Below, in pieces: positions 5,391 to 52,861 of a stretch of 64,000 nt of DNA. The stretch is taken from NCBI GenBank assembly GCA_964632315.1, contig CAZWEM010000002.1, positions 64,001 to 128,000 of the forward strand, given 5' to 3'. Under the pieces are notes generated by a model. It was not told the DNA's origin, made no database searches, and saw nothing but the letters and a program-made list of their open reading frames with translations. A program made the translations under genes and the position numbers. This DNA is from an uncultured archaeon (lineage in GTDB: Archaea; Asgardarchaeota; Lokiarchaeia; Sigyniarchaeales; SOKP01). Position 1 is the stretch's first letter. Each line of letters starts with the position of its first letter.

Positions 5391-5515
5391 TTATTCACTA
5401 TTAATTTATATAGATCTGCACTCTTAAAACTCGAAAAGTAAGAATTTATTAGTCTTAACTTCAATATTAAATTTATAGAGTCTTTTTCCTATATGTTAAA
5501 TTAAATTGATGGTGA

Positions 5516-6457
5516 ATTACGTTTACGAAAAAAGTAGCATTTCTGGGTCTTGATAATGCAGGAAAGACGTCAATTATAACAGTAATTACAAAAAGATTCG
5601 GATTTGAAGAGGAGGTTTTGAATCTACTCCCAACTAGGAAAATAGCCAGAGATGCATTTAAATTCTTAGGGATAGAATTTATTAGGATGGATTTTGGTGG
5701 CCAATCACAGTATAGAGAAGAATACTTAAAGAATCCGACAAAATACATCTCAGGTACTGATCTAATTTTCTATGTTATAGACGTTCAAGATTTTGATAGG
5801 TATGTTGAAACCATAGATTATTTAGATAAAATACTTATATATCTTAAAGAAGAGCAAGAATATCCCCCATTAGCAATTTTATTACATAAATTTGACCCTC
5901 AACTTGTAAAAGACAAGGAAATAAATAGCAGGGCATTAACGATAAAGCAAGCTTTGACCAGGTATAGTAATGACTTTGATATTTTTTTCTTTGAAACGTC
6001 TATTTATGATGTTAAATCAGTAATGGACACTTTTTCAAGCGGATTATCATTATTATTTGATAAAATAGAAATTGTTTCTCAATTATTAGCAGAAATAAGT
6101 AAAAACTACGATACCCTCCTTATTGCATTATTTGATTCAATGGGTATTACGATCGGAGAATATTATCGACCTCACATGCAATTAAAAGAAAAAATGCGCA
6201 TATATGATAAGTATTTAGATGTACAGAAAAGAATTATGGCAGAAAATAAAAAGTTATATGAATTCTCTGATAAATTCGATAATGGAGAGCGATATTCTGG
6301 ACTTATTGAAGTTTTATCATATGGAGAATTGGAATTTTACTTACTTTTTGTCATTGAAGAAGATCCAGAAAACTTGGGACAAACTGTAGAAATTCTGAAT
6401 AAGATTGAATCTGCTAGACCTCAGATGGAAAACATCATTTTCCAGATAATTCAATGA
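5516..6457 (+). CDS. Small GTPase (Arf/Rag-like) with C-terminal roadblock/longin-like domain; non-canonical start
   Basis: G1 GLDNAGKT lies in frame upstream of the called TTG (5618); G2 LPT, G3 DFGGQ, G4 HKFD, G5 ETSI; in-frame stop at 5513. Confidence 0.9.
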   Translation: MTFTKKVAFLGLDNAGKTSIITVITKRFGFEEEVLNLLPTRKIARDAFKFLGIEFIRMDFGGQSQYREEYLKNPTKYISGTDLIFYVIDVQDFDRYVETIDYLDKILIYLKEEQEYPPLAILLHKFDPQLVKDKEINSRALTIKQALTRYSNDFDIFFFETSIYDVKSVMDTFSSGLSLLFDKIEIVSQLLAEISKNYDTLLIALFDSMGITIGEYYRPHMQLKEKMRIYDKYLDVQKRIMAENKKLYEFSDKFDNGERYSGLIEVLSYGELEFYLLFVIEEDPENLGQTVEILNKIESARPQMENIIFQIIQ

Positions 6458-7518
6458 TCTTTTTCGTGTGATCTTATAAATTCACCTAATTTTTGTTTAT
6501 TAGGTGCTTCTTGACGAGTTATTTTATATAAGGAGGAAAATGTCGCATATTTCATGCAGTCTAAACTCGTCTTCTTTAATACTTGAACATTTTCTGGAAG
6601 AAATAAACGATCAAATTCTTCTTTGTTACCTATTAAATGGTACAATTGTGATAAAAATCCAGCAGCAAAAGCATCCCCGGCTCCGGTTAAATCTACAATA
6701 TGATCAATTTCAATAACTGAAAATTCTAAATGTATCTCATTCGTCAATAAATGAGATCCTCTCTTTCCTTCAGTATAGATCCGTATTTGGGCATATTTCT
6801 TCAATAAAGCATCAGCTTGTTCAACTTTTAACGCCTTTCCTAATATTTTAATAGCATCATCAAAATTGATGAATAAAATATCTTTCTTCTCTTGAATTAA
6901 TTCATCTAAAGTCGTCAAGGTTTGAATAGCTTGAAATTCAACTGTAACTACAGTAATTAGATCCTTCCTTGATCCAATTGTGAATAAATTAGAATATTTT
7001 TCAGAAAAAGGAGTTGAAAATAGTATTTTTGCATTATCAAATATACTTTCATTAATTTCAATTTGGTTGAAATTCATTTTTTGTTTCAAATTTGGTGCAA
7101 TGTATATTTTTGTTGTAATTTGAGACTTAATTATCGTGCTTACAGGAGTTAGTTCATCAATCTGGTATATATTCTCAGTAATTATGCTTAATTTGTTTAA
7201 CTCTTCGATCATCCAATTACTTCTTCGACCAATGACAGAGATTAGCCTCGTGGGAATGCCTAATGCAGAAATAATTTCTGCAGTGTTATTTCCATTTCCA
7301 CCTCTCTTTAAATAGCTAGAACCTTCTATTTTCTTAGAAATGTTTTCAATACCATTTGTAATTACTTTTTTTATGACTTTTGAATTTAGATCATCGGGAT
7401 TATATTTGATAAAATTAGCTAAATCAGATGTTAATTTTTCGATAATAATTTGATAAAAATTACTCTCATAGTATAGATCTTGATGTAATTCTCCAATAAT
7501 CACAATCTCTTTTCTCAT
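6451..7518 (-). CDS. PfkB/ribokinase-family carbohydrate kinase
   Basis: GGNGNN and DLTGAGDAF signatures; ATG at 7518 chosen because the longer ORF overlaps the tRNA. Confidence 0.88.
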   Translation of the reverse strand: MRKEIVIIGELHQDLYYESNFYQIIIEKLTSDLANFIKYNPDDLNSKVIKKVITNGIENISKKIEGSSYLKRGGNGNNTAEIISALGIPTRLISVIGRRSNWMIEELNKLSIITENIYQIDELTPVSTIIKSQITTKIYIAPNLKQKMNFNQIEINESIFDNAKILFSTPFSEKYSNLFTIGSRKDLITVVTVEFQAIQTLTTLDELIQEKKDILFINFDDAIKILGKALKVEQADALLKKYAQIRIYTEGKRGSHLLTNEIHLEFSVIEIDHIVDLTGAGDAFAAGFLSQLYHLIGNKEEFDRLFLPENVQVLKKTSLDCMKYATFSSLYKITRQEAPNKQKLGEFIRSHEKDH

Positions 7519-7561
7519 ACTAAAGTCATTCAAAGCTTTTTGATAATGATTAGCTAAATAA

Positions 7562-7665
7562 CGCAGATGGAGGGATTTGAACCCCCGCGCGCTTTCACGC
7601 ACCAGCTTTCCAAAGTTTTTAAAAAACTCCTCGAGGCTGGCGTCTTACCACTAGGCTACATCTGC
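7562..7665 (-). tRNA. tRNA-Ser(CGA) with 22-nt intron at canonical 37/38 (7629..7608)
   Basis: Acceptor GCAGATG/CATCTGC, discriminator G, anticodon stem CCAGC/GCTGG, loop CT-CGA-G^A, long variable arm, T-loop TTCAAAT; no encoded CCA. Confidence 0.92.
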
Positions 7666-7792
7666 AGTTTAAAGATTATTAATTGACTGATTGTATTTAA
7701 TAATTTAATTATTTGGATAATAATAATTTTTTCTGATGTAAGTAAACATAGTAGAAGTTTTATTTAAATAAGAAAAGTGTAAAATTATATTA

Positions 7793-8095
7793 TTAGTTAG
7801 AAGTAGGGATGTAAATTTTTAATTTTAATGAAGGATCGAATAATTTTATTAACCCTTCTTGTTCATACTTTTCCAATAATAACTTGGCAGTGGAAATCCG
7901 TATATCGTATTTTAATGCTAGATCTGAAGCTAAAATTGATTTTTTCTTCAGCAGGCTTTCTTTAATTTCATCCTCTAAAGCACCAGGGATAAATGCATCT
8001 CTTTCTACAATATTGATTTGCTTTGATCTTCCGTACTTTCTTTTTAAATTCAAGGTTGCTTTTCTTGTTAATAACTTGTCTTCTTTCTCAGACAC
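7793..8095 (-). CDS. rps25e: 30S ribosomal protein S25e (eS25)-like
   Basis: Basic N-terminus, then ILASDLALKYDIRISTAKLLLEKYEQEGLIK...KIYIP winged-helix pattern typical of eS25. Confidence 0.75.
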   Translation of the reverse strand: MSEKEDKLLTRKATLNLKRKYGRSKQINIVERDAFIPGALEDEIKESLLKKKSILASDLALKYDIRISTAKLLLEKYEQEGLIKLFDPSLKLKIYIPTSN

Positions 8096-8234
8096 AGTAA
8101 TCACAATTAGTTGAACAAATCTTATAACAGTTTATTTATAAAATATTTAAATTATAATAAAATTTTTGATTCTTTGTGAAGATAATCGAAAGACCCTTCT
8201 ATCCTTAAAATTATGCAACTAAAGTGACTAAAAT

Positions 8235-8867
8235 TTGAATGACGGATACAAATTCGAAATTAAACGTAAAAGACCTGAAGATATTTATAGAAATGTATTC
8301 GACTATTATGATTCTGATGAGATTTCAAAATATGCGGAATCAAAAAGTTTAATGAATATACAAGAAAAAATAACTATCAGGGCATTAGAAATTTTAGAAC
8401 TCAACAATAAGAATGCCTTGATTTTAGATTTAGGTTGTGGTCCAGGGTTTGCGGGTATCTATTTAAATGAACTCGGATATAAAATCATTTCCATAGATCT
8501 TTTATTAGATTTCCTAAGATATTATGATATTAAAGAATTAAGTCCAATACAGAGTGACATGAGTTTTCTTCCTTTTCGATCACGCATTTTTGATGCGATA
8601 GTTTCAATTTCATCTTTACAATGGCTTCACAGAATTTATCATTCGAAAACTACTATTAACTTAATTAAAAATCTTGCTGCAGATGTCTATAAGATATTAA
8701 AACCCTCATCAAAAGCAATATTTCAATTTTATCCTAAAAATGACAGTATTATGAAGGAAATAGGGAAGATTTTTATTGAATCCACTCCATTGGAAGGAGG
8801 TTTTATAATAGACAATCCAGAATCTGCAAAAAAAAGGCAAATTTTTCTAATTCTTAACAAGAATTAA
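8235..8867 (+). CDS. Bud23/WBSCR22-like SAM-dependent rRNA methyltransferase
   Basis: RPE...YY...KY...IQEKITIRALEIL, ILDLGCGPG, LPFR..FDAIVSISSLQWL, FQFYPKND, GGFIIDNPESAKKRQIFLIL follow eukaryotic Bud23 motifs over the full length. Confidence 0.85.
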   Translation: MNDGYKFEIKRKRPEDIYRNVFDYYDSDEISKYAESKSLMNIQEKITIRALEILELNNKNALILDLGCGPGFAGIYLNELGYKIISIDLLLDFLRYYDIKELSPIQSDMSFLPFRSRIFDAIVSISSLQWLHRIYHSKTTINLIKNLAADVYKILKPSSKAIFQFYPKNDSIMKEIGKIFIESTPLEGGFIIDNPESAKKRQIFLILNKN

Positions 8868-9036
8868 TTCTCGTTCGATTTAAGAGCGATTTATCTTTAT
8901 TGAAATCCAATGAAATACAATTTGTTATTTATTAGCTAAGAGTTAAATATGAAAAATTGTATAATAGATGGTAAAAAGTCCCACTTTTTAAATAAATAAA
9001 AATTGAATTTTCAAAAAACTTTTGTGTGAAATTTTA

Positions 9037-12000: not shown

Positions 12001-14595
12001 ATATTGTATAATAATAGTAATACAGATAATCCACTGTTGGGTGCTACTCTTAATTTTAATTGGGATTACGGTTCTGGTTCAATCATGAGCGATACGCGTA
12101 CTGGCTATGAAGAGTATTATGTTTTACAGATAGATACCACTTCATCACCTAATACGGGATTGTTTAAGTTCAAAGTTTCAGCGGAATTAGAGAATTATAC
12201 ATCACAAGTGAATGTGAATTTCGATGTATTCATACTTGATCGTCCCACCTTAATTAATGGAACAAGTCAAGTATTATACATTAGCGAAAATGTATATGCG
12301 CTTGATTCACAAACTTTCATATTCAATTATACTGATACAAACTCAGATAGCTTGATTGACAGTGCTAATGACGTTAATTACTTCTGGCAGAAATTAGATG
12401 AATTAGGTAATCCTATAATTGGCGAGACAGATTCCGGAGTATTAACTGAACTACCTAGCAACCTTTATCTTCTAAGTATTGGAACTGACGTTATGGAAGT
12501 AGGGGATTATTTTGTATACGTAACACTTCAAAAATTTAACTATGAAGACAGAGCAGCAATAATATCCTTATCAATTTTAGAACGTCCAACAAGATTAAAT
12601 GGCAGCTTGTCACTTCCTACAGTTTTTAAAAGTATAGACCAATTTGAGTCTTTTAATTTTACATTCACTTACACTGATTCATTAACATCTCAATCAATTA
12701 CTGATCTTGACATACAATCGTATAATTATAGCAGTGATGCTGAATCTTCTTCTGGTAATATTCCTCTTGGATATGATTCGAACAAAAAAATTTATTATCT
12801 TGATGGATTTGATACATCTACAAAGCCAAATGGCACGTATATTATAGATGTCTTTTTTGGGAAGCAGAATTACTCTAGTCAAACTGTGAGAATTAATTTA
12901 GTGATTAATTTTGTAATCAGTGATTATAATTCATCATTAAATCTAATTTCCAAAAGCCCACTTGATTTTTCTAATGATATTTACTGGAGAGATGAGGTAA
13001 CCGTTACATTCAATTTCACTACCAGTGATCCAACAAATGGAACTATTTTAAGTGACCCAGATTCTTTATACTTACAATTCCTTTATGATTCCCTTAATCC
13101 AATTGGAACTCAGATTAATTTACTCGGTTACAAGATTGCAACAGGAATTTATTCATACACCTTTAACACATCAGCATTTAATTTTGTTGGGGGTTATTCC
13201 TATTACATTAGCATTAAAGGTGGAAAATCTCCATATACTGCACCTCATGAGCTTCAGATATTATTCAAGGTACAATCTATTTTAACTCAACTTACAGTGC
13301 ATAATTATACAACTAATAACGAATATTCTCCATATGTAATTAATACATATTGGAATCAGCAATTCAATATTACGATTAGATATTCTGAAATTGCAACTGG
13401 TTGGAATATTGAGGGAGCTACAGTTAGTTTCAGTTGGTTCTTCGGATCTGGAGTAATTCAACCTGATTCTGTCAAGGGAAATGGATATTATACTTTTTTA
13501 TTTGATACGGGCAACGCTACTGAAACTTCCGTATATAATATCCAGTTAATAGCGACAAAGCAAAACTTTACAGACGGATTACCATACACCACTTTTCAAA
13601 TTAATATTATGGATAGGCCTACTGAATTAAACTCAACGGGTAATGTTTTCTATGTCAATGAAAAAATATACATACTTGATGTACATAACTTTACATTTAG
13701 ATACATTGATGTCTTAAGTTCCTCACCGATTTCTAATGCTGATGAATTAAGTTATATTCTTCAGAAGTTAGATTCAAATGGATACCCAATCTCAGGGGAA
13801 ACTTTTACTGGCTCTTTAATTGAAAATTCTCAGAATTATTATGTACTTGATTTAGACACGGAATCACTATCAAGTGGAGAATATTCCATCTTGATTACAT
13901 TACGCAAGGATAATTATGAATATCGAACTTCTGTTATGACTTTAACCGTACAAAAACGAGTATTTTCAATACAAATGAGCATCGATAATGAAATAGAAAT
14001 TGACGCAGCAAAATCTTTGCAATTCCAAGTAACTTTAACTGATCCGAATAATAGTTCAGCTACGGTTTCTGGAGCGGAAGTATACTTAATGATTGGTGGA
14101 ACCAGATACGATGCAAACGAAATAGATGATGGAGTATATCAATTCGATATTCCTGCCCTGGCGGATCCATTCTTTGTACCTGAATTCTTCAGGCTTGAAT
14201 TACACATTGAAAAGACAAATTTCCTTAATGAACAGAATACAATTACACTCAATGTAAAGATGAATGAAATCTTTCCGGGGGTTCCAACATTTTATTTCAT
14301 ACTGATTGTGGTTGGTGTGGCTGCTGTTGTAGGTTCACTTGTAGCATATCGAGCAATCCAACAAGCAAGAATTCCAAAGTTTGTTAAGAGGACAAGAGCG
14401 ATGAAAAAAGAGATAAAAGGACGCAAATCGATATCAGATAGTCTATTGTATCCAAGTAAAGAGGAATATATCCTAAAAGAACAAGGAGATAAATGGGACA
14501 TGATAGGTTTATCACTAGGAAGTATTTTAGGAATTGACACGAAAAGAAAGAAAACTATGCCAAAAACTCCTGAAAATGAGGGAGGTGTTGATTAA
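9037..14595 (+). CDS. Giant cell-surface protein: N-terminal signal/TM, DUF2341-like + LamG/ConA-like domain, tandem Ig-like repeats, C-terminal TM and basic cytoplasmic tail
   Basis: WWNTNFEYRSLINITN...DVRIV...VWFKV...YMYYGN; TVMVWFKT...DGRWHFAAASYDG...YTGSLDEVRFF; many N-x-S/T sequons; TM FYFILIVVGVAAVVGSLVAY. Confidence 0.85.
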   Translation: MIQKKLSQKQRKLLGLTTLFVVLNIPLLLGIFPLTSQDVVSKQTEDNDETLNVNDVGYDLWWNTNFEYRSLINITNPYNEAFDDFVTKISFNYTTYVTMGKMNDSLKDVRIVQNGIVKEYYIQKDFPNEDIATVWFKVNVSAGPIVQQDTYMYYGNNSIGFDAKLMAKNPDGLIWYNCEEGSGNILIDSMGNYNATIHAVGADLWDSSDPAIGAYSLTFTNNDYIAIQDLYFEGRNTIDALTVMVWFKTAASSSSYTDNWAFFDFDRSETFNFFITPGTGGNPTTPCTEGSIGFGTSAQGSSPVTSDFFSNTDHLNDGRWHFAAASYDGLDKRIYINDSLDNTDLNAHAGLALGRDTTRYGFVGDGSEASTFDGNRNGFYYTGSLDEVRFFEQSLDANRIEQIYNGYELATTLNEEQIRFAQISVIAKDVDGRIVPNVEVTLYNETGPFLTQTTDSRGLVEFIEVPFGDYNMTANFTSSLGVEKMVFNSSEIGKEYSFNGLIYKVYIELDIWAIDFQVEDWNGDPMDQGFIEIWDTDSKNTLIDNLTINPDTGLQTFRWLNTSSYYYEIYYNNPDYTPQITKMNSSTILRSNYVNNFKTFTRTININESATEYVAPYFGLNENYYTSDSNSTEIGNTKIIDATFQLDKMLERLHEIYIYTISNKYDPTFYDPNEIFYKNYVTETSDIININVTEATDAFGLRMELSWLNTSANCNGTVNITYTQTCNQFIKLNMSKLEIRVFDYTGIPDPIQYIIVEVRNNSTKDLITSLITDPDGIATGQTLGGYGFWYLNDVYEFSLEFYGTPNRPFNVTYSDQWVKGDFVTSYNYTLSKASLLEFEMNINLDNFLSEFRNQTWDTSTDWGDNMSFEVNYTISSDGGNSWSAISSPDYAIYKVRKVGFSSILLSGDMDDQGNGNYSITLNSGSLTAGLSYTLSVYGSKIGYIDPDPAIMSFQVNSVPTSLTFYNYSNPTQSITSISQYYGESMNVSILYNNSNTDNPLLGATLNFNWDYGSGSIMSDTRTGYEEYYVLQIDTTSSPNTGLFKFKVSAELENYTSQVNVNFDVFILDRPTLINGTSQVLYISENVYALDSQTFIFNYTDTNSDSLIDSANDVNYFWQKLDELGNPIIGETDSGVLTELPSNLYLLSIGTDVMEVGDYFVYVTLQKFNYEDRAAIISLSILERPTRLNGSLSLPTVFKSIDQFESFNFTFTYTDSLTSQSITDLDIQSYNYSSDAESSSGNIPLGYDSNKKIYYLDGFDTSTKPNGTYIIDVFFGKQNYSSQTVRINLVINFVISDYNSSLNLISKSPLDFSNDIYWRDEVTVTFNFTTSDPTNGTILSDPDSLYLQFLYDSLNPIGTQINLLGYKIATGIYSYTFNTSAFNFVGGYSYYISIKGGKSPYTAPHELQILFKVQSILTQLTVHNYTTNNEYSPYVINTYWNQQFNITIRYSEIATGWNIEGATVSFSWFFGSGVIQPDSVKGNGYYTFLFDTGNATETSVYNIQLIATKQNFTDGLPYTTFQINIMDRPTELNSTGNVFYVNEKIYILDVHNFTFRYIDVLSSSPISNADELSYILQKLDSNGYPISGETFTGSLIENSQNYYVLDLDTESLSSGEYSILITLRKDNYEYRTSVMTLTVQKRVFSIQMSIDNEIEIDAAKSLQFQVTLTDPNNSSATVSGAEVYLMIGGTRYDANEIDDGVYQFDIPALADPFFVPEFFRLELHIEKTNFLNEQNTITLNVKMNEIFPGVPTFYFILIVVGVAAVVGSLVAYRAIQQARIPKFVKRTRAMKKEIKGRKSISDSLLYPSKEEYILKEQGDKWDMIGLSLGSILGIDTKRKKTMPKTPENEGGVD

Positions 14596-14596
14596 A

Positions 14597-15706
14597 ATGC
14601 CAGTTGGATTAGTTGTGATGAAATGGGATGAAAGAGTCGGTACTGAAATACTAGCAAAATATCCAGAAGAGATAATTGTTACCGATAAAACTCTAATGCA
14701 GGTCTATAGTACACATGAATATAGTGGTGACTCCGGTATGATCAGTTTAATGGTTGGATCATTAAATATTGCTTCATACTATACCGGACCTGAAAAAGGA
14801 TATTATGTTCTACTATTATTAAACCTTGACGACGACCCAGATTCATATGAGGGAGGTTTGATTGATGTTTCTAGGATCATTCTGCAGAATTTGGAGGAGG
14901 AAGCTTATCTAAGCATGATACCTTCACTCTTCCAGAGATTGTCTATCTATCCCACCCTCAATGACGAACAAAGAATTGCGATAACTTACCAAGATGAAAT
15001 CAAGAGAATGATAATTAGCAGGTTGAGAGAAGAAGGTGTTGTTTCAAAATCAGAATTAATGGTGTGGTTGAAAGATAAGTATAAACAAGGTTTCGTCGAT
15101 TTAGAAGGAGTCTTGACTGAATTAATTAAACGAGAACTTGTGAAGGAAGCATCTGTAAAAGGAATGCCGTCTGAGTTGATCTTTCTCACTCATGATATTA
15201 TGATGTTAAGGACACCTCCAGTTCAGCTTTTAAAAGATCCCGCAGATCGAGGGTTACCTGCTCAATTAGCTGAGGATTATCGAGTAGAAGTCAAAAAGTT
15301 CTTTCAGAATTATAAACCATCGGAACAAGATAATTTAAGAGTAATAGATATCATTGTAAATCCTCAAGTATATGAAACTTTGAAATTACTTAGAAATGCT
15401 ATTGTCACTAAAAATGATCTTGAAAAACTCAAGAAAAAAGGAGTAGAAGATATTGATGACGTACTTAAAATGCTCTGGGAAAGCCAAATGATCCAAGTAT
15501 TTCAAGATGATTCTAACAATGAATATTACGCTTTATTATCTGATTTTTACGTCAATTTGATCTTTCCAAAATACTTATTGAACATAATTAAGGCAGAGTA
15601 CGAAAAAAAGTCGAAAGCAGAGCAAGTTTTAGTTGAATATCTTAATGTTTTAGAAGATACTTATTTAGAATCTAAATCAGTAACCAAAGTAAAAGCAAAA
15701 GAATAA
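14597..15706 (+). CDS. uDENN/longin-like N-terminal domain protein with helical/winged-helix C-terminus
   Basis: GLVVMKWDERVGTEILAKYP resembles the uDENN FD..xGP.l...YP start; ATG at 14597 after GGAGGTG, 1 nt after the upstream stop. Confidence 0.6.
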   Translation: MPVGLVVMKWDERVGTEILAKYPEEIIVTDKTLMQVYSTHEYSGDSGMISLMVGSLNIASYYTGPEKGYYVLLLLNLDDDPDSYEGGLIDVSRIILQNLEEEAYLSMIPSLFQRLSIYPTLNDEQRIAITYQDEIKRMIISRLREEGVVSKSELMVWLKDKYKQGFVDLEGVLTELIKRELVKEASVKGMPSELIFLTHDIMMLRTPPVQLLKDPADRGLPAQLAEDYRVEVKKFFQNYKPSEQDNLRVIDIIVNPQVYETLKLLRNAIVTKNDLEKLKKKGVEDIDDVLKMLWESQMIQVFQDDSNNEYYALLSDFYVNLIFPKYLLNIIKAEYEKKSKAEQVLVEYLNVLEDTYLESKSVTKVKAKE

Positions 15707-15743
15707 TTTTTTTTTTATTTTATATTTCTTTTTTATTTTAATT

Positions 15744-16730
15744 TTAATGTGGATTTGAAGCTATTCCTATAAGCAAACCTTGATGTTCAAAGATATCAAT
15801 ATTATTTAATCCGTTTTTATTCATCTCTAAATATAATTCATCATATGTATAAATACGGTTGATAAGTGCTGCTTTATATAACTTAATCAACTCATTGATA
15901 AAGATATTATCTGTCATTTGAAAATCTGCAACAGCAACAAGAATAATATATCCTTTAGGTTTGGTTACCCTTACAACTTCCTTTAAGATCTCATTTCTTG
16001 TCATTTCATAAAACTTTGGAGTTTTTTTATATACTGGTATAAAAGTGGCATCGAAAAAATTTTCTCTTTCTCGAAAAAGACCCCCTACAATTTCACTGTA
16101 ACGATACTTCCCCTTATTTATAGCAGATTTCGATTGGTTAATTTCATTTTTTGAAAGGATATAAATCTCGTTGCTAAATGATGAGATTTGATTTAGAATT
16201 GACAGTGGGACAAATTCAGATAACCAAATAGATAATACTCTATTAAAATTTTGAGTTCCAACTTTATCTAAAAATTTTTTGAAGAAATTTTCACGATATT
16301 CAGTTGATTCCATAACGTTATTATTTATAAGGAATTTAAGCAATAATTTTGGTATGAAATTAGTGTAATTAGTAGGATTTACTGCGACTTTTCCAGTTGT
16401 ACCATTATAAGTTAGTAACCCTCGTTTTTCAAGTTTGTCAAGGCTATAATAGAATTTTCCGGTTGACAATTTTTTAGGCACAGTAATAAATTCTTGAAAT
16501 TTAAGGGATTGAGGATTATCTTCAAGTTCTACTGGAGATTTACGCTCTCTAAACTCAATAAATTGCTTAACTTCAGTGAATAAAACGTGTCTCACCACTG
16601 GTTCTGAATATCGAGCTAAAAATTGTAAGATGATGATTTCTGCAATTGATAAATCAGCAAAATCCGAGATTGTATGATAAAGCGCATATTGATAATAATC
16701 ATCTTTATTTTCCAAATAAAGGCATCTCAA
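15744..16730 (-). CDS. Putative transcription regulator: winged HTH fused to a methyltransferase-like C-terminal domain
   Basis: LSTGKFYYSLDKLEKRGLL (wHTH recognition helix); FFDA...ILKEVVRVTKPKGYIIL (class I MTase C-terminal motif) without a clear GxGxG. Confidence 0.55.
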   Translation of the reverse strand: MRCLYLENKDDYYQYALYHTISDFADLSIAEIIILQFLARYSEPVVRHVLFTEVKQFIEFRERKSPVELEDNPQSLKFQEFITVPKKLSTGKFYYSLDKLEKRGLLTYNGTTGKVAVNPTNYTNFIPKLLLKFLINNNVMESTEYRENFFKKFLDKVGTQNFNRVLSIWLSEFVPLSILNQISSFSNEIYILSKNEINQSKSAINKGKYRYSEIVGGLFRERENFFDATFIPVYKKTPKFYEMTRNEILKEVVRVTKPKGYIILVAVADFQMTDNIFINELIKLYKAALINRIYTYDELYLEMNKNGLNNIDIFEHQGLLIGIASNPH

Positions 16731-18256: not shown

Positions 18257-19243
18257 TTAATTTTTAATAAAATATTTTTCAAAAACTTCTTCTGCGTCTT
18301 CAAAATAGGTTTTTGATATGACTTTTAATAAAGGTTTGACATTATTGGGTAATAAATCTTTCACGATAGGGTTACCGTGGAGATCCAAGGTTCTAAGATT
18401 AGAAAGTTGGTTTATAAAATTCATCTCGCTAATATCTTTTATCTTATTGTTTGAAAGGTTCAAATATTCTAAGTTTTGTAAGTTCACTATATTGTTTACA
18501 TGCTCTATTTGATTATTGGAAAGATCGAGTTTTTTAAGATTTTTTAAATTAACTAAACCAATTACATCTGAAATATTTGAGATATTATTCTTCCAACCAA
18601 AAGGTAGTCCTTTAGGTTCTAATTCTAAATCTGAAAGATCTAATTCATTTACAGTTAAATTTTGTTTATCAATTTCATAATAAAAATTTGGATATATTCT
18701 TGAAAGATTTAATATGGTTAATAAATTTATTAAAATACTCGACAATTGTGCATGTGTTAAGTTTTGTAATCCAAATTTATTATCTAATCTTTTTATCATT
18801 GATATATATCGATTTAGATAATCTTCCTTGTTTTCATCAATAACATGTGATAATTTTGTAAGAATTAATTTTTTAGATTCTTCACTCGCTATTTTATCTA
18901 ATATTTTTATAATAGAAATTAACGTAAAATAGGATTTTTCGTACTTAATTCCCCAAGTCATCAATGGAAGTGCCTTTTTTGGAAAATTTTGACCTATTAG
19001 AACAATCGCTATATTTCGGATCTTCTCATTCAAATCAGTAACCATTATTCTTTCTAATAGCTCAAAATATTTGGATGAATGCATTCCAAGATTTGCTAAA
19101 GCAACCAGTGAGGAAACTCGTTCCTTTTCATCATCACAGTTATCCAAAATTAGAATTAAGAATTTAATTGCTTCAGCCCTTCTCAAATCTAACTGAAGGT
19201 ATTTATTAATAACTTGATCTACTTTTAAATATAACTTGGTCAT
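18257..19243 (-). CDS. HEAT-like + leucine-rich repeat protein
   Basis: LLERIMVTDLNEKIRNIA HEAT-like motif; LKKLDLSNNQI, LEYLNLSNNKI, LRTLDLHGNP. Confidence 0.88.
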   Translation of the reverse strand: MTKLYLKVDQVINKYLQLDLRRAEAIKFLILILDNCDDEKERVSSLVALANLGMHSSKYFELLERIMVTDLNEKIRNIAIVLIGQNFPKKALPLMTWGIKYEKSYFTLISIIKILDKIASEESKKLILTKLSHVIDENKEDYLNRYISMIKRLDNKFGLQNLTHAQLSSILINLLTILNLSRIYPNFYYEIDKQNLTVNELDLSDLELEPKGLPFGWKNNISNISDVIGLVNLKNLKKLDLSNNQIEHVNNIVNLQNLEYLNLSNNKIKDISEMNFINQLSNLRTLDLHGNPIVKDLLPNNVKPLLKVISKTYFEDAEEVFEKYFIKN

Positions 19244-20382
19244 TTGTATACTCTCTTCTTTAATAACATCTCTTTAAAGGTGGATTTTAAGCGGTTAAAA
19301 GGTTTTAAAGTGCCAGAAAAAGGGGAATCAACCACATGTTGGATATACTTATCAAATTCTTCTTCTAATAGACTTAATTTCTTCAAATTTCCTTCTGAGA
19401 GTATGTATAAAAAATATTCATTTGGATACTTTTTAAAAGTTAAAAATCTATAATTTTGAAATCCTAACTTCACCGCAATCCATCTTGGATAAGCACCTGT
19501 ATTCCCTAATGTATTGGCTGCAATTGCCTCGATCCTAGCAGTAAGAGCAGATTCCTTCATCTCTTTTTCCTCCTCGGGATCATCATATTCTCCGGGGGCT
19601 TCAAGTTCTAATTCGTCTCCAACTAATAGCGAGATTACACCAATTGACATGGATGATAAACCTAAATAATCTACTCTAATCTGATCTTCTACATAGGAAA
19701 AATCTTGATCAGAGACAACTTGATTATCTATCAAGTCCTTAAATTCTTTATTTATGTAATTAAGTCTTGCTTCAAACTTTCTATCGATCTCATGTTTTTC
19801 TAACTTATCTAAATTATTCACATCCTTTCCAACAATTAGTTCTTCATAAAATTTAGCCATTTGCTCCAAAAACCACTTTGCTTGCATATCTGGAAATGTA
19901 CCAAAAATTATATAAATAATATCATTTCTTACATAAAACTGGCATTTTTTTTCTCCTTCTTTTTCCGATATCAAGAGCATCTTGTCCAAGACTCCCCCTA
20001 GTATGCTTGTTGCTATGAAATCGAGATTATTTGTCAGTTCAAGTAAGTATTTCAAACCATTATTATTACAATATAATTGGGTGCGATCTTTTGATGTTAT
20101 CCCGACTAATTCAATTTTTTCATTGAGATTTACTCCTATATCCTTCTTTACTTGAATCTTATCCCCAAATTTATCCGAGACTGTGCTCTTTTTTTTTTCG
20201 AATTTCTTTGGAATTTTTCTACCATTAGAATCGGCATCTTCAGTTGAATAATTGAACTTAATTTCAGGAATGAATGTTCCACACTTTGGACAAAGCTGAT
20301 CTTTCGGGTACGGCCTAACGAGGATATAACCACAGTTTTTGCATTTAATATTTTCTTTTGGAACGGAAAAAAAATTCGGAAT
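19240..20382 (-). CDS. Zinc-ribbon + tandem longin-like domain protein; non-canonical (probably ATT) start
   Basis: Frame of the 271-aa ORF stays open for 122 codons upstream (stop at 20422-20424) and encodes CKNCG...CPKCG with no ATG/GTG/TTG; longin assignment from secondary-structure pattern only. Confidence 0.7.
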   Translation of the reverse strand: MPNFFSVPKENIKCKNCGYILVRPYPKDQLCPKCGTFIPEIKFNYSTEDADSNGRKIPKKFEKKKSTVSDKFGDKIQVKKDIGVNLNEKIELVGITSKDRTQLYCNNNGLKYLLELTNNLDFIATSILGGVLDKMLLISEKEGEKKCQFYVRNDIIYIIFGTFPDMQAKWFLEQMAKFYEELIVGKDVNNLDKLEKHEIDRKFEARLNYINKEFKDLIDNQVVSDQDFSYVEDQIRVDYLGLSSMSIGVISLLVGDELELEAPGEYDDPEEEKEMKESALTARIEAIAANTLGNTGAYPRWIAVKLGFQNYRFLTFKKYPNEYFLYILSEGNLKKLSLLEEEFDKYIQHVVDSPFSGTLKPFNRLKSTFKEMLLKKRVYK

Positions 20383-20446
20383 GATACTTAACCCCAGTAA
20401 TAATTGATATAAAAAAATATTCTATCTTGAATATATAAGAAATATG

Positions 20447-21538: not shown

Positions 21539-21766
21539 ATAGTATTACCTATAAGATATTAATACTTAATTCTAAAACACTAAATATTTACTATTATATG
21601 TCTCAAATCTTCATAAATTTTTTCTTTATTTTCTTTGAATAGAAAGTAAATCTTTTATTTTCCCTTTTGAAAACTCAATTTTTAAATTTGTCAAAACTAT
21701 TTGAATAATATACTGTATTACACAATTTTTTGAAGAGTTGAGAAAGTTATTCCTTCGTACGCGCTA

Positions 21767-22645
21767 ATGTTTAACGTTTTAGAAGGTGGGGTTAGTGAAC
21801 CGATAAGTTGGGGTGAAGAAAATCTCACTAATGAGAGATCTATAATAATATTAGATGAATCAAATCAAGTGGTCTGGTTATGGCATGGAAGCATGCAAGG
21901 TTTAGTAGCGAGAAGAACTGCATTAAGGCAAGCCGAATCCCTCAAGGGACATGGCTACACTGTTGGTAAAAGCATAATTGGAAGAGATATCAAAAGTATT
22001 CGGGAAATTGATCAGAGGAAAATAGGCAGAGATCCGACAACAGATGAGCAATATGCTGAATTAGAAAAATTATTAAATAGCGATTGTAAAAAATTAGAAA
22101 ATTTTGTAGTTACATTCGACCTCATGGAAAAAGAGCCCACACCTGTAAAAGTGATTAGAGAAGAGCCCATTGTGAGTGAACCCATTAAAAAAGAAGAACC
22201 CATCAAGAAAGTAAAACCCATAAAGGTTGTAGAAACTGAACCAATAAAAGAACCCAGTTCTACTACTTCTAAGCCGGACATTAGGTCCGCTTCTGAATAT
22301 GATTTAAAACCAGTTATAGATCAAGATATTGAATCACCAGATGTTAAACTTCCAGCTATTGAACCCAAACCAGTCCCAAGTGCTCCAAAGTTAAACTTAG
22401 AATTAGAAGCTAAAATTGGTTTTGTTTTAGTTGGAATTATGGAGCATTATGACGATATATGGGTTTCTAAAAAGGGAGATGGTAGCTATTCTGTGGAAAT
22501 GATGGATGGACCAATATGTTCATTTAAAGTAACTGAAGGTTCAAAAATTTCATTTAGTTCAGATTCTTTTAAGGGTATTTCTACAAATGTGAAAACAGAA
22601 ATTCAAAAGAAATTTGTTGAACTTGGAAAGTTGATTGGAAAATGA
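21767..22645 (+). CDS. Gelsolin-like domain protein with Pro/Glu/Lys-rich linker and C-terminal globular domain
   Basis: IIILD...VWLWHG...RRTALRQAESL gelsolin-like pattern; EPIKK low-complexity linker; possible ATT start at 21749. Confidence 0.65.
   Translation: MFNVLEGGVSEPISWGEENLTNERSIIILDESNQVVWLWHGSMQGLVARRTALRQAESLKGHGYTVGKSIIGRDIKSIREIDQRKIGRDPTTDEQYAELEKLLNSDCKKLENFVVTFDLMEKEPTPVKVIREEPIVSEPIKKEEPIKKVKPIKVVETEPIKEPSSTTSKPDIRSASEYDLKPVIDQDIESPDVKLPAIEPKPVPSAPKLNLELEAKIGFVLVGIMEHYDDIWVSKKGDGSYSVEMMDGPICSFKVTEGSKISFSSDSFKGISTNVKTEIQKKFVELGKLIGK
22130..22260 (+). repeat. Imperfect in-frame (E/K)PI repeats in linker
   Basis: EPT, EEPI, SEPIKK, EEPIKK, VKPIK, TEPIKEP; DNA unit GAACCCAT-like. 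Confidence 0.6.
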
Positions 22646-36602: not shown

Positions 36603-38576
36603 TTAAAGTTCTTCCAGAATTGCATCAATCTGTTTTTCATATTGGGGTTCACGGTAATATCGTAGGGTTATCGCCTCGGAAGGACAATTTGCTAAACAAG
36701 TACCGCATCCTCTACATAAAATCTCATCAACCTCTGCTCCATCTGACTTTAACGTAATGGCATTATATGGACAATTTAACTCACATAATCCGCATTTTGC
36801 ACAGAGTTCCTTGTTAACTGTAGCTCTGATTAATAAGATCCGATATTTATCCTTTCCCATCAAACGTGCTAATGATGATGCAGCAGCTCTTCCCTGTGAA
36901 ATTGACTCGGCGATTGATTTAGGTCCTTGAGCCACTCCAGCTAAAACTATACCGGGAATTTTAGTGTCAATGGGATTTAATCGAGAATGAAATTCTTTAA
37001 AGAAACCATCTTGACTCGTTTCAAGCTTCAATATTTTCCCAATTTTATCAACACCTTTAGCTGGTACCATAGCGCAGGATAAAACGACTAATTCGTATTC
37101 GTATTCTTTTAATCCCTCATTACTAAGCGTGTTTTGTAAAATTACTTTTAGGTCATGTGTTTTCTTATCTTCTTGGATTTTTGAAACATTAGTTCTAATA
37201 TACTTAATCCCCTCTCTTCTTGAGGCAGTATAATACTCTTCATAATCTTTCCCCGCTGCTCTTATATCAATATATGCAACACTAATTTCAGCATCAGGAT
37301 AATGTTGCTTGATCAGTTTTGTGTTTTTTATTGAAATCATGCAACAGACTCCAGCACTACAATAAGTTTGTTTGTTTAAATCCCTTGATCCAACGCATTG
37401 AATGAATAACATTTTCTTGGGAGTTTTTCCATCTGAGGGTCGGACCAGATGTCCAACAGTTGGTCCGTTCGGAGCAAGCATTCGTTCAAGTTTCATCTGA
37501 GTAATTACATTTGGGAAAACGTTATAGCCTAAATACCCCGTCTCAGGTTCATATTCATCCCAACCAGTAGCAACGATAATGGAACCTACCGTTAATTCAA
37601 CGATTTCATCTTGTTGATCGAAATTAATAGCATTTAACTCACATACTTGTGCACATAGTCCACATTTGATACATTTATTCATATCAATTTGAGCTTTTGA
37701 AGGTACGGCTTGTGCAAATGAAACATAAATTGCTTTCCTTGAGTTCATTCCTTCATTAAATTCATTATAACCATATGCTGGACACACCTCAAAGCATGAG
37801 CCACATCCATTACACTCATTAGTTACATACTTCGCCTTCTTTCGTATCTTAATATTGAAATTCCCTACAAATCCCGTTACTTCTTCAACTTCACTATACG
37901 CATAAAGATTGAGGTTTGGAGCCCTAGCAGCTTCTAGCATGACAGGACCAAGTATTCATATACTGCAATCATCAGTTGGGAATGTTCTGTCTAACATAGC
38001 CATTTTTCCACCGATTGTAGTACTCTTCTCGACAAGATGTACTTCAAATCCTTCATCAGCTAAGTCAATGGCTGCTGTCAATCCAGCTACCCCTCCTCCA
38101 ATAATTAATGCTTTTTTAGTAATATCCACTTCTTTTATGAGGATTTTTTCCAATACAGATGCACGAGCTACTCCTGACTTAATTGCATCTTCTGCTGTTT
38201 TCTGAGCTCCAGGTTTATCTTGACGATGAACAAAACTTGCATGCTCACGAATATTTACAAATTCAAGATAGGATGGATCTAAATTCATCGATTCCAGGAC
38301 ACTTTGAAATACTGGCTCATGTGTTTTTGGAGTACATGATGCTACGACTAATCTATTAGCATTACTTTCAATCATCTTTTCTTTAATGAATTCTGCTCCT
38401 GGTTCAGTACAAAGACTGATGTAATCTGAAGCTTCAACGACATTTGGGAGAGTTTTTGAAAATTCGGATAATGCTTTCGTATCAATGATTTCTGCGATGT
38501 TAATACCTCACGCGCAAACAGCGACAAATACACGTATTTCTTCGTTCGTATCACTAGTAGTTTCTGCTTCTACCAT
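36603..38576 (-). CDS. hdrA: Heterodisulfide reductase subunit A (HdrA), selenoprotein with 2 Sec (657 aa)
   Basis: One frame from ATG 38576: VFVAVCA-U-GINIA (TGA 38508-38510), ASCTPKTHE, IIGGGVAG, KTFPT-like RTFPTDDCSI-U-ILGP (TGA 37956-37958), QCVGSRD, CSAGVCC, four ferredoxin Cys motifs. Confidence 0.95.
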
Positions 38577-41494: not shown

Positions 41495-41523
41495 TCATTT
41501 AATTTTATTTATTATATAAGAAT

Positions 41524-45585: not shown

Positions 45586-45613
45586 TTCTAAATAAAATAT
45601 ATGGTAAAAAAAT

Positions 45614-48087: not shown

Positions 48088-48140
48088 ATAGTAATTTTCA
48101 AATTTTTTTTTTTATTATTTATTTAAGCTAAGTGATTTTT

Positions 48141-49606: not shown

Positions 49607-49702
49607 CTTTTGATTGAAAAAAAATTCAATTAAAAGTAACTACCACTTTTTGTAAAAAAAATTTTCCAAGAAACTTTATAAAAATATCTTTTTTCTAATT
49701 AT

Positions 49703-50326
49703 TTGGTGTTTTTGATTAAAATAAATAATTTTCTCTCAGAAAAGGATCTCACTCTAATATTTAATCTTTTAAAACATCCTTTACGAAGGGGGATTATTAA
49801 GTTATTATCTGAGAGTCCACAACATTATTCATCGATACTAAAAAAACTAAATATTTCTGAAAGTAGCATTTTGAATTATCACTTAAGAGAAATGGATGAA
49901 TTATTAATCAAAAAAGATAATAACGCAAAATACACGTTAACTGAAGTTGGTGATATTTGCCTTCAGCTCATCCTTAGAGTTAAAGAAGAGAAAATTTACA
50001 GCTATGACAAGCTTCAGAGATTAGTAGAAAAATTAAAGTCACTAATATTTTTGATTCAATTAACTTTCTTTCCAGTTGTATTGATTCTGTCCCTCGTTCT
50101 ATATTTCTTAAATATAATCAATTTAGGGGCAATTATTGGAATTTTCAGTTCAGGAATAATAATAAGTATATTACTATCAACCAGCATTTTCCTAATCAAT
50201 AAAGAAATAAAGAGTGCCAATAGAATTAGTTTTAAAATGGAAAATCAAGACAAATTGTCAATATTTACAACAATTTTAACTTTTTGGATACTTATTCAAA
50301 TAACTTTTAGCCTATTCTTAAGATAA
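49703..50326 (+). CDS. ArsR-like winged-HTH protein with C-terminal TM helices
   Basis: LKHPLRRGIIKLL...SSILNYHLREM...YTLTEVG, then 3 hydrophobic segments. Confidence 0.8.
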   Translation: MVFLIKINNFLSEKDLTLIFNLLKHPLRRGIIKLLSESPQHYSSILKKLNISESSILNYHLREMDELLIKKDNNAKYTLTEVGDICLQLILRVKEEKIYSYDKLQRLVEKLKSLIFLIQLTFFPVVLILSLVLYFLNIINLGAIIGIFSSGIIISILLSTSIFLINKEIKSANRISFKMENQDKLSIFTTILTFWILIQITFSLFLR

Positions 50327-50352
50327 TAAGCAAAAATATCTTTTCTTAAAAA

Positions 50353-51654
50353 TTAGGTGAATGGATTTTTTTCCTTAAATATTTTTTCTTTATATTGAAC
50401 TAAATACGGAGGGGCTAGACCTTTTTCTGTTGCTTCTTTTTTCATTTTTCTTAATATTTCACCACAATTGATCGATACAGGACACCAGTGATAGCAATTT
50501 TCACATCCAGTACACAGAAAAAGTCCATCCTTAACTGCTGCCTCAATTCCATTGTGAATATAGTCTCTAATGATTGCTGTTGCTCCGAGACCATATTTAG
50601 AAGCATAAATATTTCCAAATGCCCGAGATGCAGTACAAGGAAAGATACAGGATTTACATCCAATACATTTCAAGAAATCTTTATACAAAAGATTTTCCTT
50701 TGCAGCTTCAGTCCTCCAATCGTCAACTAGAATTACGACCACCTCCTTTGCTCCGTACATTCCTTGTACACTAGTCCCTTGTATATCTGAGGTATTTGAT
50801 GGACCTGAAATGAGACTAATGTAATTAAAAGACACATTATTAATTCGAGACTGCAATTTTGTCATCAAAACTGCGTCTATAATATCAGGTACAATTTTAG
50901 TGATTCCACACACCACAATGTGCTTTTCAGTAGCTCTAGTGATTAAACTAATATTCCCCTCGTTTTCTCCCAAAACAATCGTACCGTCTTCGGCAGAGAT
51001 GGCATTGGCAGAAGTTAAAGAGACTTTAACATCGTTCAGAAGTTCCTTCCTATATGTATTCCTAAAAAATTCTACGATTGCGTGTGCTTTGGGTTCAAGA
51101 TCAACATTATAGACTTCTTTAATTTTATTTGCAATTTCTTCTTCAGTAAAATGAGCACCAGGTCCAACTTGAAAACTGGGGAGTTTATATTCAAAAAGGT
51201 CTACAAGGACATCTCCTAGGTCGGTTTCTTTTACTTCAATATTATTCTCTTTTAACACATCAAGGATTCCAATATCTTTCGCTTCTGTAGATTTTGATTT
51301 ATATATGACCTTATTGTCACCTAATTCATCCATAAAAAGCTTTTGAGCTTCTTCATTAGTTTTAGCATAATGTACTATGAAATTTTCCTTACGCATTATG
51401 TCGATACACTTCTCTACGTATTTATCCATGTTATCTATAAAATCCTCTCTCATCTTGATAAGTCTATCCCGATATTTTTCTACAAATTCTCTACTTGAAT
51501 CATCAAATAAATATCTTAAATCATGTTGCCTTGTTTTAATAGTACATGCTAATTTCCAAAAGTCTCCGAATTTTTTCTGTAGGGTGCCTTCAGTTTGAAG
51601 AGATTTAATATTGTCTCTCACATGTTCATAATTATCTTTTCCCTTATCACTCAA
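50353..51654 (-). CDS. LUD-domain Fe-S protein (LutB/YkgF-like)
   Basis: KSKS, ETDLG, ENEGN, LISGPSNTSDI, CIGCKSCIFPC, CTGCENCYHWCPV. Confidence 0.88.
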   Translation of the reverse strand: MSDKGKDNYEHVRDNIKSLQTEGTLQKKFGDFWKLACTIKTRQHDLRYLFDDSSREFVEKYRDRLIKMREDFIDNMDKYVEKCIDIMRKENFIVHYAKTNEEAQKLFMDELGDNKVIYKSKSTEAKDIGILDVLKENNIEVKETDLGDVLVDLFEYKLPSFQVGPGAHFTEEEIANKIKEVYNVDLEPKAHAIVEFFRNTYRKELLNDVKVSLTSANAISAEDGTIVLGENEGNISLITRATEKHIVVCGITKIVPDIIDAVLMTKLQSRINNVSFNYISLISGPSNTSDIQGTSVQGMYGAKEVVVILVDDWRTEAAKENLLYKDFLKCIGCKSCIFPCTASRAFGNIYASKYGLGATAIIRDYIHNGIEAAVKDGLFLCTGCENCYHWCPVSINCGEILRKMKKEATEKGLAPPYLVQYKEKIFKEKNPFT

Positions 51655-52387
51655 CTAATGGGTCAACTCCTTCCATTAATTTTACAATAAAATCTTCAAA
51701 TTTAATAACTGGTTTTTTAATTTGATTTTCATTTCTAATGCGATTTAAGGAAGTATAACAAAAAGGACAAGCAGTTAATAATAATTTACCACGCTTTAAT
51801 TGGTCAAAAATCAGTTTAGAATTGTGATCACTATTTTCTTTAAAAACTGAATATACTCCACCACCTGCTCCACAACAAATACTATTAGTTTTAATGTTAT
51901 CTAATTCTTTTAGTTCAACATTTTCGATAGATTCAAGAATTTTTCTAGGTTCTTCCATTATTGGAACTTCGGCATTTCTCAAGTGACAAGCATCGTGATA
52001 ACTGACTTTTAAAGGTTTATTGGAATTCTTAAGATTTAGTTTAGTTAAGTTTTCGGGCATAGCCATTAATTGGAGTAAATGTTTAACATCAACAGTAAAG
52101 TCTTCTCCTAAATAATGTTTATAGTATTTTGTCAAATAATTATAACATCCAGCACAAATAGTTACAATTTCATTGACATCATTTGACTTGAACCAATTGT
52201 TAACAAATTCCACATGAGTTTTTAATTCTGTATCACTGCCAATATGATATGCTAAAGCTCCACAACAAGGAGTATCATCAAGAACTTGGTATTCCGAATC
52301 TAATAAATTTATGATTTTCAATGCATTTTTACAAGTTTCTTGATATCTTGTCTTAGATAAACATCCAAGAAAAATTAATTTAGTCAA
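51647..52387 (-). CDS. CCG-domain Fe-S protein (LutA/HdrD-like)
   Basis: FLGC, PCCG, TICAGC, YHDACHL, CCGAGGG, TACPFC. Confidence 0.88.
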   Translation of the reverse strand: MTKLIFLGCLSKTRYQETCKNALKIINLLDSEYQVLDDTPCCGALAYHIGSDTELKTHVEFVNNWFKSNDVNEIVTICAGCYNYLTKYYKHYLGEDFTVDVKHLLQLMAMPENLTKLNLKNSNKPLKVSYHDACHLRNAEVPIMEEPRKILESIENVELKELDNIKTNSICCGAGGGVYSVFKENSDHNSKLIFDQLKRGKLLLTACPFCYTSLNRIRNENQIKKPVIKFEDFIVKLMEGVDPLVE

Positions 52388-52579
52388 GAATAAATCCCAT
52401 CGTTATTTGAAGTAATTTATTATAGATTTTTGAAATTAAAATTATTTACTTTATTTATCTATAACTTGAGTTATATTAATAATTTCAAATCGATTCAAAA
52501 ATACTTAATAAGGATTAAATTGAAATTTAATTCATTAATATAATTCATTAAATTGTTTAATCGTCAGAGTTGAGATAAG

Positions 52580-52861
52580 ATTCCTAAATTAGTTGAAAAT
52601 AAGGAAAAAAAATTTTCATTATTCCTCAATAAAAATAGATGCGGTGGAGATCAATGTTATAACTGTATTGCTGTATGTCCCACTGGAATATTAGAGCCTG
52701 GAGATGAATTGAATATGAGAGTAGCGTATCTCCCTCGCGTAAAAAGCGGTAAAGAATCATATTGCACTGGATGTCGCCGCTGTGAATATGCTTGTCCAGA
52801 ATGGTGTATATACGTTATAGATGAGGAGGAGAATCTTTCAAATGAGAAGGCTAAAACATAA
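52580..52861 (+). CDS. korD: 2x[4Fe-4S] ferredoxin, delta subunit of 2-oxoacid oxidoreductase (not in ORF track; probable ATT start)
   Basis: (I)PKLVENKEKKFSLFLNKNRCGGDQCYNCIAVCPTGIL...YCTGCRRCEYACPEWCIYV...KT*; in-frame stop at 52571, no ATG/GTG/TTG before the first cluster motif. Confidence 0.88.
   Translation: MPKLVENKEKKFSLFLNKNRCGGDQCYNCIAVCPTGILEPGDELNMRVAYLPRVKSGKESYCTGCRRCEYACPEWCIYVIDEEENLSNEKAKT

Follow-up and report, generated by a model that had tools for sequence, protein, structure and literature searches.

The window analysed here is a stretch of 64,000 nt that spans positions 64001-128000 of contig C2 in G000, the metagenome-assembled genome of an uncultured archaeon of the Lokiarchaeia. 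The assembly comprises 4.45 Mb in 119 contigs at 31% GC, with an estimated marker completeness of 99.5% and contamination of 8.6%. Public homologues are labelled Promethearchaeota or Lokiarchaeota, and DNA matching the window was found in salt-marsh metagenomes. Six of its genes were flagged by a sequence-only reading, which proposed that they start at codons other than ATG, GTG or TTG (the canonical start codons) and that a Shine-Dalgarno (SD) motif sets the position of the start. The features of these genes are as follows:

5511..5515, plus strand: SD box GGTGA of the GTPase gene, followed by 9 nt and then ACG 5525
5525..6457, plus strand: Rag/Gtr1-like small GTPase gene, predicted start ACG 5525-5527
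19240..20382, minus strand: gene for a zinc-ribbon protein without a Pfam family, predicted start ATT 20380-20382
20391..20395, minus strand: SD-like box GGGGT, 8 nt before ATT 20382
52567..52573, plus strand: GAGTTGA box, an SD with one mismatch, 6 nt before ATT 52580
52580..52861, plus strand: korD-like 2x[4Fe-4S] ferredoxin gene, predicted start ATT 52580-52582
21735..21741, plus strand: GAGTTGA box, an SD with one mismatch, 7 nt before ATT 21749 and kept in the six closest species
21749..22645, plus strand: hypothetical protein gene, probable start ATT 21749, with ATG 21767 six codons downstream
421..1332, minus strand: gene with probable start ATT 1330-1332, preceded by GAGTGA and 5 nt, with GTG 1339-1341 inside the SD box
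55569..57386, plus strand: gene in which ACG 55569-55571, preceded by GAGTGA and 5 nt, is the homologous start codon

Ordinary genes of the window begin as had been described: at all eight of the starts quoted (1651, 8095, 16876, 35919, 38576, 46246, 48141 and 59560) a (G)GTGA motif is followed after 5-7 nt by ATG, GTG or TTG. It had also been claimed that three unrelated genes carry essential domains upstream of their first canonical codon, and the P-loop, the zinc ribbon and the Fe-S cysteine cluster are all indeed encoded there. The GTPase frame opens after TGA 5513-5515, encodes the P-loop GLDNAGKT at 5546-5569 and has its first canonical codon at TTG 5618, a start at which would remove the P-loop. 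The Pfam domain Gtr1_RagA covers residues 6-213 of the stop-to-stop frame, and the Arf domain also begins at residue 6. In the zinc-ribbon gene, a CxxC...CxxC ribbon and a linker, together with about 110 codons, lie upstream of the first canonical codon (TTG 20055) and would be lost by a start there; the exact start codon of this gene is placed by homology, because ATC 20383-20385 and CTG 20395-20397 are also in frame. The korD-like frame opens after TGA 52571-52573, its first cysteine cluster precedes the first ATG (at about 52709), and Fer4_10 covers residues 18-75; the gene stands first, upstream of three consecutive open reading frames (ORFs) for putative kor alpha, beta and gamma subunits. 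All six flagged genes are without a usable ATG, GTG or TTG at the true 5' end, and five or six of the about 48 genes of the window are affected. The start at 55569 is ambiguous because GTG 55560 lies in frame three codons upstream with no stop between.

In each flagged gene the ATT or ACG stands 5-9 nt after an SD-like box that is complementary to the 3' end of 16S ribosomal RNA (rRNA). No 16S rRNA gene was found in the G000 assembly despite its completeness, and the 3' end was instead read from two congeners, in which it is canonical, GGAUCACCUCCU. Because this tail is canonical, GAGTTGA can be read as GAGGTGA with one central mismatch. Where G000 has GGGGT before the zinc-ribbon gene, orthologues carry GGGGTTGA or GGAGTTGR. 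Attempts to treat the mismatched box as a signal of its own gave nothing: GAGTTGR-N5-8-ATH-CC (ATH being ATT, ATC or ATA) occurs at only two ORF 5' ends in the genome, both of them window genes, and G[ACT]TGA shows no ATT enrichment genome-wide. Most cases elsewhere in the genome have a plain GGTGA box.

The 5' ends of the window genes were compared, gene by gene, with those of orthologues in as many as 24 further species of the genus of G000 (g1), within a comparison set of >40 g1 species, other genera of the same family f1 (including g10, g11 and g12) and the sister families f2-f4. At the position homologous to ACG 5525 of the GTPase gene, eight species have ATG and three have ATT; in eight of these 11 orthologues the frame is closed by a TGA or TAA 1-3 codons before the start, and in one (L009) a GGTGA box and a 9-nt spacer precede the ATG. 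TTT 5522 had been offered as an alternative start for this gene; since the orthologous ATG and ATT codons align to ACG 5525-5527, it is not the GTPase start. In the zinc-ribbon gene the homologous codon is ATT, ATC or ATA in 19 of the 22 readable orthologues, directly preceded by an in-frame TGA or TAA in six species, and in families f2 and f4 an ATG or GTG stands about 10 codons upstream of the first cysteine. All 23 g1 orthologues of korD have ATT (19) or ATA (4) followed by CCN AAN, with in-frame stops directly before the ATH codon in two species. Elsewhere the homologous korD codon is ATG (M-P-K-L) in f4 and the sister genus g10, GTG in genome G027 and ATC in g12.

The three weaker candidates, ATT 21749, ATT 1332 and ACG 55569, all gain support from their orthologues, although 55569 is still ambiguous. 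At 21749, ATT is retained in the six closest species, where [PT]-S-[YF]-A-L comes next and the changes are synonymous; in 18 others an ATG stands one codon further on and opens M-[DE]-[FY]-A-[LI]-M-F. The codon homologous to 1332 is ATG in seven, GTG in one, TTG in two and ATT in eight of 18 genomes, always 5-6 nt after (G)GTGA, and an in-frame TGA lies two codons before the ATT in four species. At 55569 the orthologues have ATG (16), GTG (3) or TTG (1) where G000 has ACG. The sequence-only reading had predicted that methionine codons of orthologues would align to the ATT or ACG codons, and this is the pattern seen for the GTPase, 1332 and 55569, and for korD in other families and the sister genus.

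The same association was sought across the genome in 3,665 non-overlapping ORFs of >=100 codons. GC content is 43-70% in nineteen contigs (C36, C74, C80, C82, C87, C90, C98, C103-C113 and others), compared with 31% elsewhere; they are probably contaminant bins, in keeping with the 8.6% contamination estimate, and were left out of the genome-wide statistics. A codon was counted if it was in frame, at or before the first canonical codon, and 5-8 nt behind an SD motif. The five non-canonical codons with the strongest enrichment after GGTGN all differ from AUG at one position, and these five (ATT, ATA, ATC, ACG and CTG) make up the near-cognate set:

ATT: 26 observed, 8.8 expected, p = 6e-7
ACG: 5 observed, 0.6 expected, p = 3e-4
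ATA: 15 observed, 6.8 expected, p = 0.004
CTG: 3 observed, 0.6 expected, p = 0.025
ATC: 7 observed, 2.9 expected, p = 0.026

When all SD 5-mers of AGGAGGTGATC were used at the same spacing, the near-cognate count was 97, where 53.3 were expected (p = 1.4e-9), alongside 318 canonical starts, and the most enriched non-canonical codons were ATA, ATT, ACG and CTG. Reversed, complementary or scrambled SD motifs and wrong spacers (0-2 or 12-15 nt) gave no enrichment. The near-cognate excess of ~44 genes equals ~12% of perfect-SD-led starts and should be taken as a minimum, since the count misses weaker SDs like those of the window. Raw motif counts taken without ORF context returned coding periodicity only, and ORF-anchored tallies with wide spacers diluted the signal too far. 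Dicodon coding potential before the first canonical codon (143 against 93 at a score >0.3) gave a modest excess over a contaminated intergenic control, and this score served solely for choosing candidate ORFs.

Twenty further ORFs chosen by coding potential upstream of the first canonical codon were searched against Pfam, and in 11 of them the domain begins before that codon (residue numbers refer to the stop-to-stop frame):

TFB: zinc ribbon at residues 20-60; first canonical codon 74
SCS-beta (ATP-grasp): domain from residue 7; first canonical codon 92
URO-D: domain from residue 9; first canonical codon 43
GPN GTPase: domain from residue 8; first canonical codon 47
3HCDH: domain from residue 12-13; first canonical codon 30
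TetR: domain from residue 18; first canonical codon 35
TGT: domain from residue 12; first canonical codon 23
Ras-like GTPase: domain from residue 14; first canonical codon 55
GcvT: domain from residue 29; first canonical codon 39
Usp: domain from residue 3; first canonical codon 23
AACS: domain from residue 51; first canonical codon 57

In these genes, as in the primary genes of the window, ATG, GTG and TTG are absent between the upstream in-frame stop and the conserved domain-encoding sequence. Each of the 11 has ATT, ATA or ATC a few to ~9 nt (mostly 5-8) behind an SD, and the N-termini read from these ATH codons fit family norms (for example M-R-L-L-E-Y in SCS-beta and M-Y-N-K-I-L-V-G-I-D-G-S in Usp). 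TFB starts with ATT or ATA in 16 of 16 g1 genomes, in most of them immediately behind AAGGTG-TAA; g10 and g11 have ATT, g12 has ATC, and families f2 and f4 have ATG. Since ATH is found across the genera of f1 and ATG in f2 and f4, the near-cognate trait is family-wide and derived.

Four other genes picked out by coding potential were considered as start-codon cases and rejected. Those for GAPDH (C9:34487-35482, minus strand), a Ras-like GTPase (C10:26066-26653, plus strand) and an EF-2-like GTPase (C25:27295-29379, minus strand) look N-terminally incomplete. The GAPDH frame opens four residues before GFGRIGR, the usual first beta-strand is missing and an out-of-frame ATG is present there; a frameshift, an intron or an unusual N-terminus could be involved. 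The frames of the two GTPases open inside or just after the G1 motif, and these genes may be split or intron-containing. The fourth, an HdrA-like gene of the window (36603-38576, minus strand), starts at ATG 38576 behind GGTGA and 7 nt and appears as three pieces in ORF lists. It has two in-frame TGA codons, at 38508-38510 (motif VCAU-G) and 37956-37958 (motif FPTDDCSIU), and both probably encode selenocysteine.

Inspection of the initiation factor aIF1, which the sequence-only reading had recommended, revealed ATT as the start codon of its own gene in relatives of G000. A search of 18 other g1 genomes located SUI1/aIF1 in 13, and all 16 full-length copies from these 13 genomes have ATT, as do g10 and g11. 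In 14 of the 16 copies the frame after a TGA reads AAA AAG AGT ATT AAA GAC ... TGT, and ATG, GTG and TTG are all missing upstream of the zinc knuckle; in two paralogous copies GAGGTGA and 8 nt lead to ATT AAA GA. A disfavoured start on the gene of this fidelity factor is thus conserved in every f1 genome examined. Among 41 further Asgard genomes, the aIF1 start is ATA in f11, f17 and genus g5 of f2, possibly CTG in f6, and ATG, GTG or TTG elsewhere. Immediately before the ATA, the g5 genes have an ATG or TTG that is out of frame and then AAA AAA C.

Relaxed, SD-positioned choice of the start codon, as first proposed for the window, is the best reading of these data: all six flagged genes have orthologue support, the spacing is that of an SD, and the enrichment holds against its controls. 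These genes are very probably translated from near-cognate starts, mostly AUU, AUA and AUC and less often ACG or CUG. Judged by comparative sequence evidence, such starts are real, conserved and genome-wide, and serve a sizeable minority of genes. The SD box would pair with the 3' end of 16S rRNA and so set the P site of the small subunit 5-9 nt downstream, where initiator Met-tRNA would accept a codon that mismatches AUG at one position. Near-cognate use would be a heritable, family-wide property of f1, with AUH starts (AUU, AUC or AUA) kept through the divergence of >20 species. Methionine would be the first residue and initiation would be less efficient, and a regulatory use, as suggested in the sequence-only reading, may exist.

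An error of assembly or sequencing might have replaced true ATG or TTG codons, or an indel in an A/T run might hide an upstream start; A-runs do lie near all three primary sites, and ATG 5509 would be in frame for the GTPase if one A of an A6 run were missing. The GTPase orthologues, however, have their ATG aligned to the ACG and not to 5509, and the same non-canonical codons occur at homologous positions in 11-24 independently assembled species. At 20382, contigs assembled in two other studies show no difference among the best-supported matches listed, and 5525 is thinly covered. The probability of such an error is practically nil. It is scarcely more credible that the genes are decaying or that their products are N-terminally truncated and begin at a downstream ATG or TTG, even though public gene calls of several homologues do start there. 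The upstream parts are conserved as protein with synonymous changes, including the cysteines of the first Fe-S motif, the P-loop and the ribbon CxxC; the first ribbon CxxC is present in all orthologue loci and the second in the public homologues that retain the ribbon. Truncation would moreover cost the P-loop, the TFB zinc ribbon or Rossmann motifs. Conservation of near-cognate codons within the genus, together with ATG or GTG in sister families, excludes assembly error, pseudogenes and truncated products alike. Recoding of the upstream stop by selenocysteine or readthrough was also considered and rejected: the stops include TAA, TAG and TGA, no conserved frame precedes them, and the selenocysteine case of the window is different.

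Translation might begin instead at a TTG or ATG within the GAG-NTG-R box and reach the gene by programmed frameshifting or by termination and reinitiation. A TTG (at times ATG or CTG) does lie in the box, mostly 10 nt ahead of the ATH codon, the TTG AGA TAA of G000 korD ends 1 nt before the ATT, and the ATG or TTG with its AAA AAA C before the g5 aIF1 gene lies in the +1 frame. The distance from TTG to ATH is nevertheless 9, 10 or 11 nt depending on the species, which would need three different shifts, and neither a conserved slippery heptamer nor a fixed frame relation was found. The mini-ORF from the box TTG has 3 to 11 codons, is not conserved and often overlaps the gene. Variable spacing and an unconserved mini-ORF point to a positional, SD-like role of the box and argue against both mechanisms, as do the box of the G000 zinc-ribbon gene, which has no TTG, and the plain GGTGA of most genome-wide cases; such a route is very unlikely. 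The same can be said of a canonical start in an upstream exon joined through a bulge-helix-bulge (BHB) intron or restored by another event at the RNA level, such as editing. The incomplete N-termini of the GAPDH, Ras-like and EF-2-like genes would suit it, but in the genes reported here the Pfam matches begin at profile position 1-4, a few residues or less after the stop (BHB motifs themselves were not searched for), the N-termini are as long as in orthologues of other families that start at ATG, and the SD lies at start-codon distance with promoter-like AT-rich DNA upstream. Unlikely too, if less markedly, is the reading of AUH by something other than initiator Met-tRNA, for example an initiator-like AUH-reading transfer RNA (tRNA) that would give an N-terminal isoleucine. 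At conserved sites the third base is T, C or A and never G; genes for tRNA-Ile(UAU) and tRNA-Ile(GAU) are present in G000; and the initiator tRNA was not found, which leaves room for a variant. On the other side, the enrichment extends to ACG and CTG, in keeping with one-mismatch pairing to CAU and not with an isoleucine reader; the codon alternates with ATG, GTG and TTG among orthologues; and no extra initiator-like tRNA was seen among 23 tRNA hits, a set of poor recovery.

Several points weigh against near-cognate initiation or narrow its reach. The absence of G at the third base of AUH sites is also what an internal isoleucine codon would show, and adjacent in-frame stops are the only argument that separates conserved AUH starts from internal isoleucine codons. 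At 55569, 21749, 1332 and some orthologues an SD-embedded GTG or a nearby downstream ATG is in frame, and any such gene, taken singly, could still use a canonical start. No CAU initiator tRNA was found among the 23-30 tRNAs recovered from G000 with ARAGORN and Rfam, where recovery was poor. SUI1/aIF1 was not found in the G000 assembly, and for this reason an ATT start of its aIF1 gene is extrapolated from congeners. The f1 aIF1 proteins have only four mild family-specific substitutions, which give no clear functional lead, and no obvious cause of relaxed stringency is visible in them. The apparent lineage specificity of near-cognate use is drawn from five gene families, and the enrichment statistic from G000 alone.

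If near-cognate initiation operates in f1, the start codon of aIF1 acquires a particular interest. The factor has been reported to discriminate against non-canonical starts (PMC6237735), and its own near-cognate start suggests feedback of the infC or eIF1 type, that is, a negative loop through its AUU start. An aIF1 gene placed behind AUU could hold stringency at a level where SD-led near-cognate codons work. The ATA, or possibly CTG, starts acquired independently by aIF1 in four other Asgard lineages fit selection for such a loop. As a tentative and rather doubtful extension, family f1 might have reset its start-codon stringency through this loop, with the near-cognate genes forming a regulon that follows aIF1 activity; TFB, the aIF1 gene itself, the Rag/Ras-like GTPases and korD may be among its members.

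Further observations concern tRNA genes and the coverage of the window. Only about 23 tRNAs were detected in G000, many of them intron-bearing. A tRNA-Ile with anticodon UAU and a 59-nt intron lies at C35:150-304 (plus strand); in archaea AUA is usually decoded by an agmatidine-modified CAU tRNA, and a UAU tRNA-Ile is uncommon. An intron-containing tRNA in the window (7562-7665, minus strand; 47 bits with the Rfam tRNA model, Ser(CGA) with a 14-nt intron by ARAGORN) adjoins the 5' end of the minus-strand ORF 6451-7602. Contig depth rises ~5- to 40-fold (to 105-118) at window positions 15700-15830 in all four metagenome runs examined. This stretch is intergenic, between ORFs 14534-15706 and 15744-16730, with poly-T loose ends at 15707 and 15739, and looks like a repeated or low-complexity element.

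Single non-canonical starts are known from bacteria, where infC (IF3) has an AUU start with autoregulation and E. coli pcnB also starts at AUU. The f1 genes resemble infC in having an SD-led, conserved AUU start and, with aIF1, in encoding behind such a codon a factor that rejects non-canonical starts. They differ in that aIF1 is unrelated to IF3, that dozens of ordinary genes including TFB appear to use AUH, and that the f1 feedback is a prediction. Near-cognate initiation and autoregulation of eIF1 through a poor start context are described for eukaryotes in PMC4705826 and, as relayed in PMC6237735, by Ivanov 2010 and Fijalkowska 2017. The one-mismatch codons (AUU, AUA, ACG and CUG) are shared, as is the placing of an orthologous factor, eIF1 or aIF1, which controls stringency, behind a weak start. 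The f1 sites, in contrast, would be set by SD pairing and the eukaryotic ones by scanning and Kozak context; near-cognates in f1 would be the sole start of full-length housekeeping proteins, whereas those of eukaryotes give upstream ORFs or N-terminal extensions.

Among archaea, ribosome profiling of Haloferax volcanii with harringtonine assigned ~30% of putative alternative initiation sites to near-cognate codons (PMC7261190). Those sites are alternative or additional and were set aside by the authors as possible false positives, while the f1 codons appear to be primary and conserved starts. The machinery known from archaea is the same (aIF1, aIF1A, aIF2 and an SD-prepositioned pre-initiation complex with local scanning) but rejects non-canonical codons, which f1 would use routinely. 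For Lokiarchaea, reviews state only that SD motifs are rare (PMC7531240, PMC12993045), and the literature searched yielded no account of near-cognate codons as conserved primary starts, whether in Asgard archaea or in others.

The expectation that automated annotation truncates such genes was borne out for the zinc-ribbon protein: six of its nine closest public homologues are cut to 246-303 aa or start inside the ribbon, and others start at the nearest in-frame TTG or ATG. With gene callers restricted to ATG, GTG and TTG, a few percent of the genes of such genomes would be cut short or given a wrong start. Eukaryotic-signature GTPases are among those affected, as are zinc-ribbon proteins, and Asgard domain inventories and structure predictions would be biased accordingly. 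The SD-anchored enrichment test can be applied to any genome for finding such lineages. Archaeal initiation, which relies on the eukaryote-type factors aIF1, aIF1A and aIF2, has been thought to reject non-canonical codons such as AUU, AUA, AUC and ACG, yet a lineage near the eukaryotic stem very probably starts essential proteins at them routinely, and the evolution of start-codon stringency and of eIF1-type feedback becomes testable in archaea. If the proposed aIF1 loop is real, initiation fidelity would be coupled to global transcription and metabolism in this family, which would then hold an archaeal counterpart, and possibly a forerunner, of the eIF1-controlled near-cognate initiation of eukaryotes.

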